DNA of 15,070 nt. It comes from Verrucomicrobiales bacterium (GTDB taxonomy: Bacteria > Verrucomicrobiota > Verrucomicrobiia > Verrucomicrobiales > SLCJ01). Below the pieces are notes generated by a model, which made no database searches, was not told the origin of the DNA, and worked only from the letters and a program-made list of their open reading frames with translations. The stretch is taken from positions 1 to 15,070 of the forward strand of contig JBJTQJ010000120.1 of NCBI GenBank assembly GCA_046075565.1. Reading direction: 5' to 3'. Made by a program: the position numbers and the translations under genes. This document shows, in pieces, positions 9,388 through 13,596 of this stretch; position 1 is the stretch's first letter, and each line of letters begins with the position of its first letter.

Positions 9388-9780
9388 TTATGGGGTCGGC
9401 GGAGCGGTTTTCTCGGTCTTCAGGCGGACGACCTCATACCCTTTTTCCATGGTTCCGGAAAGCACATCGGCGGCAACCATGCGGCTTTTCCGCTCCGGGG
9501 TGACCTTAACCTTGCCGACACTTGTCCCGGCGAATCGAACCTCCAGCTCCTCGCCCGTGGCGACCGACTCCCCGGCTTCGAGCTGGAAGACGACAAATGC
9601 GTTGTCGGCTCCGAGCACGAGGATACGCCCTACCACGGTCTCGGTCACGACCTCCGCGGGCAGGGTTTCGGTGGTGCCGGTGCCGGTTCCTCCGGGGCCC
9701 TCCGGCTTGTCTTTGCCATGTTTACAGGATGGACCAATGGTCATGGCCATCGCCGCGAGGAGTATGAAAGTCCGGCGCAT
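9388..9780 (-). CDS. Hypothetical lipoprotein with a small beta-barrel domain
   Basis: MRRTFILLAAMAMTIGPS-C lipobox-like signal, G/T/P-rich linker, beta-rich domain ending AADVLSGTMEKGYEV. Confidence 0.75.
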   Translation of the reverse strand: MRRTFILLAAMAMTIGPSCKHGKDKPEGPGGTGTGTTETLPAEVVTETVVGRILVLGADNAFVVFQLEAGESVATGEELEVRFAGTSVGKVKVTPERKSRMVAADVLSGTMEKGYEVVRLKTEKTAPPTP

Positions 9781-9832
9781 ATAGCAATGTTGGCCGAAGC
9801 CGAGCAATCCGGCAAGTCGCAAAGCAACACAG

Positions 9833-9861
9833 TTGACGCCTCCCCCCCCCTCGGTTAAAAT
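9833..9861 (+). promoter_or_regulatory. sigma70 promoter of tRNA-Ser
   Basis: TTGACG (9833-9838), N17, TAAAAT (9856-9861), 20 nt before the tRNA. The spacer contains a C9 tract. Confidence 0.85.
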
Positions 9862-9881
9862 CTCCGTCCCGCCACAACCAA

Positions 9882-9973
9882 GGAGAGTTGGCTGAGTGGT
9901 CGAAAGCAGCGCTTTGCTAAAGCGCCATACGGGTCAAACCGTATCGAGGGTTCGAATCCCTCACTCTCCGCCA
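9882..9973 (+). tRNA. trnS: tRNA-Ser (anticodon GCT)
   Basis: Acceptor stem GGAGAGT/ACTCTCC, discriminator G and encoded CCA; anticodon arm GCGCT-TTGCTAA-AGCGC; long variable arm ATACGG-GTCAAA-CCGTAT; T arm GAGGG-TTCGAAT-CCCTC. Confidence 0.98.
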
Positions 9974-10133
9974 TTCTTCGCTTCCTTACCGGAAGCTACG
10001 AATGGCAAGCCAGCACCCCTCCCCGCACCCTGGAGAAGGCCATCAATTCCCAAAAAGGAAGCGAAGAATGCCCTTCGAAGCTCGCAGAGCGAAGTAGGGC
10101 GGCGTAGAATGTCCATCGATGTTCTACGCCTAT
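9955..10133 (+). repeat. 179-bp direct repeat, copy 1 (tRNA 3' 19 nt + palindromes + first 5 codons of the GIY-YIG gene)
   Basis: Matches 10216-10394 at offset 261 with two mismatches (10066 G vs 10327 A; 10101 G vs 10362 C). Confidence 0.95.
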
Positions 10134-10215
10134 TTCCCGGGATTCGAACCCTTGATCTGGAAAATTCGGTTCGATTGCCGCGGCAGCGGCAAGGCCGCGA
10201 CCGCAGGGAGCGGAC
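10134..10215. repeat. 82-bp tRNA-T-arm-derived palindromic spacer module
   Basis: GGGATTCGAACCC (10139-10151) is the exact reverse complement of tRNA 9948-9960. Also GGTTCGA (10168-10174) and hairpins TTGCCGC-GGCA-GCGGCAA and CCGC...GCGG. Confidence 0.8.
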
Positions 10216-10394
10216 AATCCCTCACTCTCCGCCATTCTTCGCTTCCTTACCGGAAGCTACGAATGGCAAGCCAGCACCCCTCCCCGCACCCTGGAGAAGG
10301 CCATCAATTCCCAAAAAGGAAGCGAAAAATGCCCTTCGAAGCTCGCAGAGCGAAGTAGGGCCGCGTAGAATGTCCATCGATGTTCTACGCCTAT
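10216..10394 (+). repeat. 179-bp direct repeat, copy 2 (leads into the intact GIY-YIG gene)
   Basis: Begins AATCCCTCACTCTCCGCCA (tRNA 3' end duplicate, att-like) and ends in ATGTTCTACGCCTAT. Confidence 0.95.
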
Positions 10395-10628
10395 ATCCTC
10401 CACTCGGAAAAATTCCCAGGTACCCTTTATTATGGGTTCACCACCAACCTCAAGTCCCGCCTGATCGCACACAATGGAGGAGGAAATGATTCGACGCGGA
10501 ACATGCGTCCATGGAAGCTGGCCTGGTATGGCGCATTTCAGACAGAAAAAGCTGCCCGGGCCTTCGAAGACTATCTGAAAACCGCATCGGGCAAGGCATT
10601 TGCCCGAAAACGTTTGCTCCCTTCATGA
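10380..10628 (+). CDS. Small stand-alone GIY-YIG nuclease family protein (UPF0213/SLX1-like)
   Basis: FYAYIL...LYYGFTTNLKSRLIAHN...TRNMRPWKL...AFEDYLKTASG; conserved Tyr, Gly, Arg, His and Glu are present. Confidence 0.92.
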   Translation: MFYAYILHSEKFPGTLYYGFTTNLKSRLIAHNGGGNDSTRNMRPWKLAWYGAFQTEKAARAFEDYLKTASGKAFARKRLLPS

Positions 10629-10684
10629 GCGTGCCTCACCCGCCCGGCGGGACGGCCTCCGGATTCCTTGGATTTTCCCGATCT

Positions 10685-11608
10685 TCAACGGCAGTCGGTC
10701 GGAGTCTGGCCGAGAGCCTGCCGGTAAAAGACCCAGTTCGCCTCGCCCAGACCCTGGAGCAGCGCCAGCGTGTCGTGGCCTGCCTCCGGCACGATGGAGA
10801 AGGTGTGGTCGATCTTGAGCTTGGTGAGATGCTCGGAGTAGGCGCGATTCAGCGGGCCGGAGCTATCACGCGAACCGACCGCGATGCGCACGATCCCTTT
10901 GCCACGCACGGCAGCCGCCTGCTGTTCGGCGATGGTGATGGGATGCTGCGCGCGATAGTAATCCAAGTCTCCACCGAAGGCCTCCTTCAGGATGCGCTCG
11001 CGCCCGGCCGGATTCGCGGTGGCGCGTGGTCCGGAAAAATCCAGGTCCAGCGGACCGCCCGCGAGAATGGAGACCGCTCCGAAAAGTTGCGGATACTTGA
11101 ATCCCAGCCTCGCCGCGCCAAATCCGCCCATGCTGAATCCTTCAAGGATCCGGCCTTCGCGTGCGGCGACCGTGCGAAACGTGGCATCAACATGCGGGAT
11201 GAGTTCCTTGATGATCACGGTTTCGATGGGCGCGGTGCCGTCCTTCGAGTTGCACCACATGCTTCCGGTCAGCCCATTCGAAAAGACCACGAGCATGGGC
11301 GGGATCTTACCTTCCCGCATCGCTCGGTCGAACAACTCGGAAAGCCGCGGAATTCCCGGCAGTCCGCCGCCCGTGCCATGCAGCCAGTAGAGCACGGGAA
11401 AGCGCCGTTCTTTTTCGGTTTCGCAGATCTCCGGCGTGAAGACATGGCAGCTCACCTGTCGCCCCGCCGCCTTGCTGTCGAAGAGCACACGCTGAACACG
11501 CGGTGCATCCACCTCCGGCAGCACCCAGCGCGGGGCTTGTTGGGCGTGCAGCGGAGCCAGCGGCGTGAGCAGCAGGGCGGTTAGGAAGGTGCGGCACTGT
11601 TTCATCAT
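10685..11608 (-). CDS. Secreted esterase, alpha/beta hydrolase (Fes/XynZ feruloyl-esterase-like family)
   Basis: Signal peptide; RFPVLYWLHGTGG, ELIPHVDATFRT, nucleophile GFSMGG, VGSRD, AGHD. Start ATG 11608/11605, or TTG 11644 overlapping the upstream stop. Confidence 0.9.
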   Translation of the reverse strand: MMKQCRTFLTALLLTPLAPLHAQQAPRWVLPEVDAPRVQRVLFDSKAAGRQVSCHVFTPEICETEKERRFPVLYWLHGTGGGLPGIPRLSELFDRAMREGKIPPMLVVFSNGLTGSMWCNSKDGTAPIETVIIKELIPHVDATFRTVAAREGRILEGFSMGGFGAARLGFKYPQLFGAVSILAGGPLDLDFSGPRATANPAGRERILKEAFGGDLDYYRAQHPITIAEQQAAAVRGKGIVRIAVGSRDSSGPLNRAYSEHLTKLKIDHTFSIVPEAGHDTLALLQGLGEANWVFYRQALGQTPTDCR

Positions 11609-11640
11609 GGTCAGAAATCGCGTCAGCAGGGGAAATGTGC

Positions 11641-13596
11641 TCAAGGTTGTTTCGCGCCGTGCTTTTCAAACCACGCCCGGACCGCGGTGAACACTCGCTC
11701 GCGCTGGGTCTGGTCGATGGGGTGACCTTCGCCGTCGTAAACGGTGCGTTCATTGACCACGCGGTTTTTGTCGAGGATGGCTTTGAAGTCCGCCGACTGC
11801 TGTGGGCGCACGACCGCGTCCGCGCTGCCATGCAGGATAAGGAACGGCGTGCGGACCTGTTCCGCCTTCGCGGCGGACGGCGCGGGAAAACCTTCCTCCG
11901 GCGCGATGCCGCTGCCGGTGATCGCCGCCGCCTGCAAACTATCGGGTGCAATTGCCGCCAACCCGATCGTCACGAAGCCACCCATGCTGTGTCCGTAGCC
12001 AAAGAGGCGTTTGGTATTCACCTCAGGCATGCGGCTCACCAGATCAAGACACGTGCGCGCGCGCCGGAGGTTCTGCGCGCTTGCGCCGTAATCGGCAAGA
12101 TGTTGTCCGCTGTCAGCGCCTTTCGGTGGTGGGCCGGCTTTGGGTGCGCCCGGTCGGTCGCCCTGCGCGCCGGCGGAATGTGTATAAGAGGGGGCGATGC
12201 AGACGAAGCCCCACTTCACCATCTCGCGCGCCTTGGTCAGCCCGAAACTCTCCGCGCTGCCGCCGAGCCCGTGGCTGATGAGCACGGCGGGAAATGGCCC
12301 TTTGCCCTCGGGCTTGAGCAGGATGCCGTCCATCACGAAATCGCCGTCGCGATACGTCCAGCGCTCGCCATTGATCTGAAATTCCCCGGACCCGGTCGCG
12401 GGGTTCTTTGCCGCCGTGGCTGTGTTTGTCGCGGCAACGTCGTTGAAATCCTCTTTCGAAACGAAACCATCGCGATTTCGGTCGAGGCGGTCGAACATTG
12501 CGGCCGGGCCTTTGAACTGGTTGCGCGCCACCCGGCCATCGTCTTCGACGCCTTCGATGCCTCGGACTCGCTCCCAACTCATTTTGCCACCTCCCTTGGG
12601 CGTGCCGGCTTTGCCTTTGCCGGCTGCGGGCGCGGGCGCATCGTTGCTGTCCGAAGTCTTTGCCGGGCCGAGATTCGGCGGGAGCGGTTTGGTTTTGAGC
12701 ACGCGGTCGAAGAAGTCGGCCACCATCGGCTCGATCTCCGGTCCGCCGAAGCCCTGGCCGTGGCCCGCGCCCTTGATGGTGTGGAAATGCACGTTCACGC
12801 CCGCCTGTTTCAATGCATCATAGAGGAGTTGGCTTTGGTTGATCGGCACCAAGGGGTCCTTGTCGCCATGCACGATCAGAAATGCCGGATCGTCCTTGCT
12901 CACGTAGGTGATAGGATTCGCGCGCGCGGCACGGTCCTTGTTCTCCATCACCGCGCCGCCGATGAGTTTCGCCTCGGGCGAATTTGCCGTGGCGTGACTC
13001 TCGTATCCGGGCGTGGTGACGAACACCGTGAAATCGGTCGGCCCGAAGTAATCGCACACCGCCTGCACGCGGCTGGACTGTTCCAGATGCGCGCCGACAT
13101 CGAAAGCCTTCACGTCGCCGCTCGTGCCGGCCAGCGCGACGAGATGGCCCCCGGCGGAACTGCCCCAAACGCCAAAACGTTTCGGATCAAGACGGTATTC
13201 CTCCGCGTGCGCGCGCAGCCAGCGGATGGCGGCCTTGCAGTCCTCGATCTGCGCCGGAAACACCGCGTGGCCGCTGAGACGATAGTTGATGCTCGCCACC
13301 GCGTAGCCGCGTTCCGTGTAGCCGTTGCGCAACGGCGGGCAACCCTCCTTGCTGCCGTTCTGCCAGCCGCCGCCGTGAATCCAGATGATCAAGGGCAATG
13401 GTCCGTCCGCCTTCTCCGGCACGAACAAATCGAGTTTCTGCCGCTCGTGCCCGTTGACGACGTAGGCAAGGTCGCGATGCGCTTTCACTCCTTGCGCGAC
13501 GGGCGCGGAACCACCGGAACGGGGTTGAGCGGTGACAGGGAGCGCGGCCAGCGGCGCGAGCAGCAGGGCGGCGAGGAGGAAAATGAGATGATTCAT
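11641..13596 (-). CDS. Secreted tandem alpha/beta hydrolase: BD-FAE/HSL-like domain + EF-hand linker + dienelactone-hydrolase/S9-like domain
   Basis: Domain 1: HGGGW, GSSAGG, HGDKD, GAGHG. EF-hand: DRLDRNRDGFVSKEDF. Domain 2: SHGLGG, GHSMGG, HGSAD, GEGH. Confidence 0.88.
   Translation of the reverse strand: MNHLIFLLAALLLAPLAALPVTAQPRSGGSAPVAQGVKAHRDLAYVVNGHERQKLDLFVPEKADGPLPLIIWIHGGGWQNGSKEGCPPLRNGYTERGYAVASINYRLSGHAVFPAQIEDCKAAIRWLRAHAEEYRLDPKRFGVWGSSAGGHLVALAGTSGDVKAFDVGAHLEQSSRVQAVCDYFGPTDFTVFVTTPGYESHATANSPEAKLIGGAVMENKDRAARANPITYVSKDDPAFLIVHGDKDPLVPINQSQLLYDALKQAGVNVHFHTIKGAGHGQGFGGPEIEPMVADFFDRVLKTKPLPPNLGPAKTSDSNDAPAPAAGKGKAGTPKGGGKMSWERVRGIEGVEDDGRVARNQFKGPAAMFDRLDRNRDGFVSKEDFNDVAATNTATAAKNPATGSGEFQINGERWTYRDGDFVMDGILLKPEGKGPFPAVLISHGLGGSAESFGLTKAREMVKWGFVCIAPSYTHSAGAQGDRPGAPKAGPPPKGADSGQHLADYGASAQNLRRARTCLDLVSRMPEVNTKRLFGYGHSMGGFVTIGLAAIAPDSLQAAAITGSGIAPEEGFPAPSAAKAEQVRTPFLILHGSADAVVRPQQSADFKAILDKNRVVNERTVYDGEGHPIDQTQRERVFTAVRAWFEKHGAKQP

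Follow-up and report, generated by a model that had tools for sequence, protein, structure and literature searches.

We describe a small genetic cassette, built from an 82-amino-acid GIY-YIG nuclease gene and hairpin-forming flanks, that lies directly behind the tRNA-Ser(gct) gene of a Verrucomicrobiales bacterium (contig JBJTQJ010000120.1 of assembly GCA_046075565.1). The window analyzed is the entire 15,070-bp contig; the assembly, coded G000 below, comprises 3.9 Mb in 129 contigs. Homologues of the gene recur behind tRNA genes in distinct bacterial phyla and share a conserved hairpin that spans the tRNA junction; many of them are followed by a further copy of the tRNA 3' end (T3'). We consider it rather likely that these units are minimal homing-like selfish cassettes, lodged at tRNA 3' ends and carrying a hairpin nuclease that resembles the Ssn family.

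Anatomy of the tRNA-Ser(gct) locus

The tRNA-Ser(gct) gene (9882-9973) was called by ARAGORN and scored 60 bits against the Rfam tRNA model. It is the one tRNA found in the window, and the assembly, with 47 tRNA genes and one tmRNA gene, has no other tRNA-Ser(gct). A repeat search located a 183-nt direct repeat at 9955-10137 and 10216-10398 (98% identity, start-to-start spacing of 261 nt), which BLAST aligned over 179 nt at 98.9% identity; the copies differ at 10066/10327, 10101/10362 and 10134/10395. The repeat starts with AATCCCTCACTCTCCGCCA inside the T-loop, runs to the CCA end and stops just past the codons ATG TTC TAC GCC TAT (MFYAY). The first copy holds these five codons only (ATG at 10119), whereas the second continues into an 82-amino-acid open reading frame (ORF) at 10380-10628.

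An earlier note on this DNA, made from its letters alone, had described a duplication with a 261-bp period behind the tRNA, starting in the T-loop and ending after codon 5, with a stump in copy 1 and an intact gene in copy 2. The repeat search and BLAST confirmed the duplication and its period, the boundaries hold at the nucleotide level, and the ORF list and Pfam bear out the stump and the gene. One point needs correcting: within the 261-nt period only 183 nt are repeated, and the other 78 nt (10138-10215) form a distinct module, here called X. The paired palindromes it mentioned are all present, including 9970-9985/9991-10006, and 9972-9987 pairs perfectly over 16 nt with 10055-10070. Folded as single-stranded DNA, the unit outperformed 200 of 200 shuffles on each strand (z of -3.9 and -3.6). 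A Pfam scan of 24 ORFs on the contig found no integrase or transposase domain, in agreement with the earlier note, and a permissive Rfam scan of 9700-10800 returned only the tRNA and its antisense look-alikes, with no match for X or for the hairpins M and M'. The features of the locus are as follows.

9833-9861, + strand: promoter-like site TTGACG-17 nt-TAAAAT upstream of the tRNA (consensus scan)
9882-9973, + strand: intact tRNA-Ser(GCT) (ARAGORN, Rfam)
9955-9973, + strand: first copy of T3', the last 19 nt of the tRNA (T-loop A58 to CCA)
9955-10137, + strand: direct repeat copy 1 (T3', hairpin M, leader, five codons)
9970-10006, + strand: hairpin M of cassette A across the tRNA/cassette junction (GCCATTCTTCGCTTCC..GGAAGCTACGAATGGC), conserved across phyla
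10055-10070, + strand: 16 nt perfectly complementary to the left arm of M, allowing an alternative pairing at long range
10070-10100, + strand: hairpin M' of cassette A (GCCCTTCGAAGC-loop-GCGAAGTAGGGC), the M motif inverted and the motif of the dispersed genome repeat
10101-10130, + strand: hairpin enclosing the start codon (GGCGTAGAA..TTCTACGCC)
10119-10133, + strand: GIY-YIG ORF stump MFYAY of cassette A
10138-10215, + strand: X, the right-end module of cassette A, containing an inverted tRNA T-arm copy (10139-10156), GGTTCGATTGCC and a hairpin (10175-10192)
10205-10222, + strand: T-stem mimic in X, continuing into the next T3'
10216-10234, + strand: second copy of T3' (last 19 nt of the tRNA)
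10216-10398, + strand: direct repeat copy 2
10231-10267, + strand: hairpin M of cassette B
10331-10361, + strand: hairpin M' of cassette B
10380-10628, + strand: intact 82-amino-acid single-domain GIY-YIG gene, the only copy in the assembly
10629-10684, no strand: short spacer before an esterase gene (10685-11644, minus strand)

Module X recurs in the same genome. Contig C23 has two tandem copies behind tRNA-Ser(gga), C73 has one copy that is not near a tRNA, and C52 has a fragment. The C23 units each terminate in the 3' end of tRNA-Ser(gga) itself (ATCCCTCCCCATCCGCCA), not in that of the GCT tRNA. These C23 units read T3'-M-X, and the first unit of the window reads T3'-M-leader-five codons-X. 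The closest homologue fetched together with its DNA (metagenome contig L114, 80% amino acid identity) also lies behind a tRNA-Ser(gct), in the order tRNA-M-leader-ORF-stop-X-AATCCC, the last at the contig edge. X aligned with the post-ORF flank of L114 with a score of 76, which none of 500 shuffles reached, and it also aligned with the post-ORF flanks of L040, L033 and L030, identifying X as the right end of an intact cassette. A search for X after the intact ORF of the window gave no significant match (313/500 and 45/500 shuffles reached the same score), and the spacer at 10629-10684 contains neither an X module nor a third T3'; a 15-nt remnant at 10663-10677 resembles the post-ORF flank of L114. 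With X being a cassette right end that is absent after the ORF, the locus very probably consists of two tandem cassettes: A, which lacks the ORF from codon 6 onward, and B, which retains the ORF and lacks X and the distal T3'. The data do not support the 261-bp period itself as the mobile unit. It corresponds to an ORF-deleted cassette (left end, leader, five codons, X and the tRNA 3' copy) standing ahead of a second one. From these comparisons, an intact cassette would comprise M right after CCA, a leader with M', the 80-amino-acid GIY-YIG gene, X, and a T3' copy of ~19 nt. The inverted copy of the tRNA T-arm/3' part that opens X is clear in 5 of 14 loci (17-19 nt); in seven it is no longer than in shuffles, and two have none. 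The frame of the cassette A stump stays open through X, the second T3' and hairpin M, giving a 79-amino-acid chimeric ORF (10119-10358) that is probably meaningless.

Public contigs from two sequencing runs of one study revealed the locus in two forms, as the earlier note's idea of copy-number variation had anticipated. In run X1, a 142-nt contig matches 10104-10245 without a difference and passes from the repeat end through X to the repeat start, representing the two-unit form. A 690-nt contig of run X2 passes straight from 10066 to 10328, so that exactly 261 nt are missing while all else is identical, and nothing covers 10112-10162; this is the one-unit form, consisting of the tRNA and one full cassette without X. 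At position 10327 the assembly has A, while the sole public contig covering it in run X1 reads G, like copy 1, so the assembled base may be a minor variant or an error.

These data bear on two simpler accounts of the array. A plain local 261-bp tandem duplication by replication slippage, with no relation to an element and with X as local sequence, would suit the head-to-tail layout, the 98-99% identity and the existence of a one-unit form. X, however, is missing both from the one-unit form and from the post-ORF flank, and is homologous to cassette right ends elsewhere and to the C23 and C73 units. Since a simple duplication cannot create X, we regard this account as improbable. That the duplication is an assembly artefact is more improbable still. 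The 129-contig assembly is of a metagenome type, and the contig depths in run X1, the best-matching run (repeat 19.4, X 12.1, flanks 20-21), are inconsistent with a two-copy repeat, although such depths are not readable that way; the independent 142-nt contig nevertheless crosses the junction without a difference, countering misassembly, and the same architecture is present in L016, L139, L117 and L146.

Cassettes at tRNA 3' ends

The association with tRNA genes was tabulated for 80 homologue loci from one-genome-per-species contigs (genome set) and 74 loci from metagenomes, counting a locus as positive if a tRNA or tmRNA gene on the same strand ended no more than 400 nt upstream of the GIY-YIG start. 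By this measure, 43/80 genome loci and 34/74 metagenome loci were positive; seven of the former have less than 150 nt of upstream DNA and eight of the latter lack it. The chance expectation is ~0.25% per locus (48 tRNA/tmRNA genes in 3.9 Mb). The hosts are mainly Ser isoacceptors and Gln, with Asn, Leu, His, Tyr, Pro, Asp, Glu, Ala, Arg, Val, Thr and tmRNA in addition; at least 14 different tRNA species plus tmRNA are occupied. That the GIY-YIG gene and its structured flanks make up a cassette tied to tRNA 3' ends, as the earlier note had supposed, is borne out at these loci.

The last 12-21 nt of the tRNA recur, with two mismatches at most, within 400 nt past the ORF in 24 of the 43 tRNA-positive genome loci. 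At Patescibacteria-type loci the distal copy begins GATAC/C where the tRNA has GAATC/C, which places the junction in the T-loop, as in the window. A direct repeat of a tRNA 3' end is the classic signature of integrase-driven integration, and the units could thus be scars of islands or prophages, with the tRNA ends as attL/attR and the GIY-YIG gene as leftover cargo. Such islands resemble the cassettes in leaving the tRNA intact and in having its 3' end directly repeated on either side of the insert, and the tRNA-Ser loci of relatives are indeed rearranged downstream of the tRNA. No integrase domain, however, turned up in the 24 ORFs scanned on the contig, and inserts of 0.14-0.6 kb, rather than kilobases, are too small for such a gene. 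The bracketed units span only 140-570 nt, with a repeat that begins in the T-loop and a conserved hairpin after it, and dozens of loci in different phyla show this compact arrangement. We consider an origin as integrase scars very improbable.

Two further observations concern the surroundings of these cassettes. A second, more distant GIY-YIG paralogue (38-48% identity) ends 6-15 nt before a tRNA 5' end at L065:2153-2380, L070:2142-2375 and L041:3816-4043. In L065 and L070 it precedes the same tRNA that bears the cassette at its 3' end, so some tRNAs are flanked by nuclease genes on both sides; in L041 the tRNA is a nearby tRNA-Ala. Many loci lie no more than a few hundred bases from a contig end (L017, L029, L031, L042, L046, L049, L059, L072, L073, L080, L086 and others), which fits cassettes or their repeats breaking short-read assemblies.

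Hairpins, the GIY-YIG protein and related systems

Motif M starts directly after CCA and reads TTCTTCGCT-loop-AGCTACGAATGGCAAGCCAT; we collected 90 distinct instances, and its DNA sequence is conserved in Verrucomicrobiota, Patescibacteria and metagenome-assembled genomes (MAGs) of Gammaproteobacteria. The outer stem pairs the last bases of the tRNA with the cassette and covaries: among 38 short-form copies, pairing was found in 59/70 and 75/85 cells in register versus 13-35 with the partner shifted, and for one outer-stem pair AT, CG and TA are all found. Compensatory changes affect the inner stem as well (TCC/GGA, TTC/GAA, TCA/TGA). This covariation supports M being a real hairpin, and is compatible with its forming in DNA or RNA alike. 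The inverted form of this motif, hairpin M', lies after the ORF in Patescibacteria-type cassettes and in the leader in Verrucomicrobiota, including the window.

M' is also dispersed through the genome. The pattern CTTCGWAGC-N3-9-GCGAAGTAGG had 18 matches in G000, 16 of them outside the locus, while the reversed pattern had none and 40 relatives all gave 0. Thirteen of the 16 dispersed copies fall outside any open frame of at least 150 amino acids, and the copies are embedded in larger composite palindromes. A slightly looser pattern gave 3, 7, 6, 13, 1, 1, 8, 1, 1 and 0 matches in ten other genomes with close homologues (controls 0), counts that include the copies at the GIY-YIG genes themselves; the motif thus travels with the gene and has spread genome-wide in some hosts only. 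The composite palindromic repeat of G000 measures ~100-150 nt, is mostly intergenic and comprises at least two subfamilies; its first hairpin is GCAAGAGCGAGACGCTCTTGC and its second GCAAGACCG..CCTTCGAAGCCTTGGCGAAGTAGGCCCGGTCTTGC, with a core identical to the leader hairpin of the GIY-YIG gene (sites include C9:6828, C31:41259, C37:50794, C73:20580, C82:58106, C115:34477 and C119:54227, among others). The hexamer TTCGWA is common to the T-loop, M, M' and X, but is not enriched across the window (23 matches versus 15.6 expected, a count reached by 17 of 200 shuffles); 7 of 13 window sites lie within 9951-10568, a clustering noticed post hoc.

The 82-amino-acid protein is a single GIY-YIG domain spanning residues 2-72 (Pfam PF01541, 46.7 bits versus a cut-off of 22.6, E-value 3.9e-12), with no family match in NCBIfam. 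Its AlphaFold2 model has a mean predicted local distance difference test score (pLDDT) of 95.2 and a b-b-a-b-a-a order of secondary structure (b, strand; a, helix). Foldseek placed it closest to SLX1, At-HIGLE and UPF0213 in the PDB, and a PDB profile search returned UPF0213 and SLX1 only. Y5, Y17, G19, R27 and N32 do not vary across 34 homologues, H31 and E63 hardly do, and a C-terminal YLKTASGKAFARKRLL helix forms a family signature. A profile search recovered 2,681 cluster representatives at an E-value of 1e-10 or better, and the 80-amino-acid protein retains 50-70% identity across phyla; cultured carriers include Haloferula helveola and Haloferula chungangensis. Only one promoter-like site was found by consensus scan in 9600-10900 (0.3 expected), and it precedes the tRNA; the gene is therefore probably read from the tRNA promoter, and co-transcription with the tRNA appears likely from the sequence.

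The solved relatives SLX1/At-HIGLE and UPF0213 (BH0048, EF2693) are the best matches in both sequence and fold. SLX1 differs in being longer (249-298 residues in the matched chains) and in working with SLX4; the UPF0213 proteins are labelled only 'hypothetical' in their PDB entries. A further comparison is with the Ssn family (SsnA of Neisseria meningitidis, CDD cd10448; Chenal et al. 2025, PMC11893778), whose members cut single-stranded DNA at specific sites. Binding of SsnA to its hairpin requires single-stranded DNA, the cut falls a few bases upstream of the hairpin, and the authors liken the hairpin-gene-hairpin layout to an insertion sequence. The cassette protein shares with the Ssn family a single GIY-YIG domain of about 80-95 amino acids (82 here), a cognate hairpin repeat, of a different motif here, that flanks the gene and is dispersed in the genome, and a catalytic Tyr/Tyr/Glu set (Y6, Y17 and E64 in SsnA; Y5, Y17 and E63 in the 82-amino-acid protein). 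It differs from the Ssn family in that its nearest solved relatives by sequence and fold are UPF0213 and SLX1. The main text of PMC11893778 contains no occurrence of tRNA, and no duplication of tRNA ends or ORF-less derivatives; a search of 12 of its 14 supplementary files for Verrucomicrobia found a few genera given as lacking an ssnA homologue and none of the cassette-carrying species.

REP/RAYT and IS200/IS605 systems are similar in coupling a single-copy nuclease gene to dispersed, mostly intergenic hairpins, and in a chemistry proposed on single-stranded hairpins. They differ in that the enzyme here belongs to the GIY-YIG rather than the HUH Y1 class, that the cassette is targeted to tRNA ends with duplication of the target end, and that the cassette shows no evidence of peel-and-paste. 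The REP/RAYT analogy drawn in the earlier note gained indirect support insofar as the leader hairpin is dispersed 16 more times and absent in 40 relatives, but it is no longer new, since the Ssn family, reported in 2025, is a GIY-YIG family acting on hairpin repeats in single-stranded DNA (PMC11893778).

Copy-number variation, proposed mechanism and alternatives

The gene is patchily distributed among related genomes. Homologues at an E-value of 0.001 or better were found in 6 of 41 related genomes, including that of the window (none above 48% identity), and three of these six loci have the gene 116-333 nt behind a tRNA. The upstream neighbours of the tRNA-Ser(gct) gene (MarR and a hypothetical gene) are kept in the same-family genomes G001 and G003, which allows the locus to be compared directly, as the earlier note had suggested. 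In G003 nothing cassette-like follows the tRNA, giving an empty site. In G001 (L098:1575-2085) the tRNA is followed by 2.6 tandem units of ~190 nt, each combining a 19-nt T3' with a terminator-like hairpin and an X-like module, in a genome with no GIY-YIG homologue at an E-value of 0.001 or better. Units with X only also lie behind tRNA-Ser(gct) in G002, G010 and G012. Within G000, ORF-less copies comprise two M-X units behind tRNA-Ser(gga) and one at a non-tRNA site.

Presence/absence polymorphism of units bounded by T3' is seen elsewhere as well. Three metagenome contigs give a cleaner case: the sole difference of L138 and L139 from L140 is a T3'-D-X piece of 201 nt, placed exactly where GGGTTCG meets AATCCC in tRNA-Ser(tga). 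In one MAG, tRNA-Ser(cga) and tRNA-Ser(gga) are followed by ~870 nt of common sequence, 85% identical (L024:2285-3150 and L040:315-1180). Besides the cassette, this stretch includes a T3' of the gga type and ~330 nt of downstream flank, so the cga tRNA received its copy, together with the flank, from the gga locus.

We propose that the Ssn-like enzyme would recognize its own hairpins in single-stranded DNA, and probably also the similar TTCGAA-containing T-arm of tRNA genes, and would nick or cut single-stranded DNA there. Repair of the break by copying from a cassette-bearing template could then spread the cassette, in the manner of a free-standing homing endonuclease gene. Insertion would rebuild the tRNA 3' end on both sides and leave the site open to further events; with the target regenerated and events repeating, tandem arrays, ORF-less mini-cassettes and the gain or loss of whole units would all be explained. 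Nuclease activity, substrate, cut site and repair route are here inferred by comparison of sequences, and we hold the homing-like route of spread more tentatively, at somewhat short of even, than the two-cassette anatomy.

The closest experimental parallel comes from phages. SegB of T-even phages is a free-standing GIY-YIG nuclease encoded in a tRNA cluster, and its activity is reported to amplify in tandem a 718-bp unit that combines a tRNA with a truncated segB and is joined at a microhomology (PMC13096335). This amplification is the nearest experimental counterpart of the array in the window: in both, a GIY-YIG gene lies among or behind tRNA genes, and the amplified unit of tRNA plus truncated gene mirrors that of the window. 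Break-repair spread with co-conversion of flanks would also fit the ~870-nt stretch shared within one MAG. Seg proteins carry a DNA-binding part beside the nuclease domain; SegB is, moreover, a phage protein, whereas the cassette protein has 82 amino acids, consists of the nuclease domain only and is encoded in cellular chromosomes. Duplication of the tRNA 3' end and a junction hairpin are not described for SegB in the passages of PMC13096335 consulted. A presence/absence pattern between collinear genomes with copying of flanks, as in Seg-type genes, may be indicated by the patchy distribution, the empty site in G003 and the single flank-included copy, with no direction of gain assigned.

Several findings weigh against a homing-like selfish cassette. 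The evidence is comparative throughout, with activity, cut site and movement unobserved. Among the 80 genome loci, 28 with sufficient upstream DNA have no full tRNA there, although several of the 16 that were inspected read X-T3'-M or have M immediately behind CCA, meaning a partial tRNA end, and so speak for the link to tRNA. Two cassettes, those of L019 and L022, sit inside an IS91-like ORF after ...GCCGCCA. Both ORF-X-T3' and X-T3'-M-ORF orders occur, and a simple model of insertion after CCA fails for the second. The two-cassette history of the window requires two deletions, and the unit polymorphisms fit passive recombination or slippage between direct repeats equally well, their direction being unassigned. 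The SRM pattern of the Ssn family (HGTCWY..RNCYNB) does not occur in the window, and its 39 matches in the genome are no more than chance would give (24, 31 and 46 in three shuffles). The hairpin is unevenly dispersed across the ten other genomes with the gene, and the second batch of them (1, 8, 1, 1 and 0 matches) indicates that dispersal is not a general trait. Finally, a single GIY-YIG gene in the genome and strong protein conservation would also suit a domesticated host gene. As to the insertion in L019 (2356-2760) and L022 (2357-2760), the cassette is not at a tRNA, and the interrupted frame reads ..FKAPDFIAA, then the cassette directly after GCCGCCA, then VRYYGLYSNKTRGQ..; its motif suggests that the frame belongs to an IS91-like transposase.

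The domesticated gene is the most serious alternative, although we consider it unlikely. It would encode an Ssn-like hairpin nuclease with a cellular task, such as the control of recombination or DNA uptake at REP-like repeats, and would stand behind tRNAs only for their promoter, with the repeats arising by slippage or unequal crossing-over. A single-copy gene, residues strongly conserved across phyla, a sole promoter-like site upstream of the tRNA and dispersed, mostly intergenic, REP-like hairpins all agree with such a role; loss of units between direct repeats requires no nuclease, and SsnA of Neisseria acts at the host level in transformation, according to PMC11893778. A cellular function sits poorly, however, with a gene present in only 6 of 41 relatives and a syntenic locus empty in G003, with the occupation of at least 14 tRNA species and tmRNA, and with the bracketing by duplicated tRNA 3' ends. 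Nor does it account for ORF-less derivatives at other tRNAs or for one cassette copied with its flank between two tRNA-Ser loci, and 50-70% cross-phylum identity for an 80-amino-acid protein suggests transfer between lineages.

A bolder version of the selfish cassette is also conceivable but doubtful: the 80-amino-acid GIY-YIG protein might be the sole protein required by an autonomous mobile element at tRNA 3' ends. It would recognize T-loop-like TTCGWA hairpins in single-stranded DNA, cut tRNA genes in the T-loop and install its own cassette via host repair, with the tRNA end restored on either side, while mobilizing ORF-less M-X mini-cassettes and seeding REP-like hairpins genome-wide. If true, this would be a GIY-YIG equivalent of RAYT and of the TnpA of IS200/IS605, and no smaller self-propagating DNA element would be known in bacteria.

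A full-text literature search yielded, among the matches listed, no description of GIY-YIG cassettes at bacterial tRNA 3' ends. The family of selfish-looking elements at tRNA gene ends is widespread and apparently undescribed. New here are the tandem pair of a full and an ORF-less cassette, the one-/two-unit polymorphism, the M-X mini-cassettes, and a genome-wide hairpin that links the family to Ssn and REP logic. If mobile, the cassettes, at about 0.35-0.6 kb and with a single 80-amino-acid protein, would be some of the smallest selfish elements of bacteria that code for a protein. They would then also account for a trait that recurs, so far without annotation, at tRNA loci of Verrucomicrobiota, Patescibacteria, Gammaproteobacteria and others, namely tRNA 3' ends present in duplicate, short tandem arrays, and contigs that break off behind tRNA genes. 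They would tie Ssn-type hairpin nucleases to a concrete genomic lifestyle and target, and could supply compact single-strand nucleases, possibly programmable, with new specificities. The window holds the material for direct tests: an intact gene, its ORF-less partner, cognate hairpins and a natural one-/two-unit polymorphism.

Smaller tandem duplications were also observed within the leader. In L114 (655-905), a duplication of ~125 nt begins inside hairpin M and spans the leader, and similar partial tandem duplications around M and M' are present in L035, L125 and L133.

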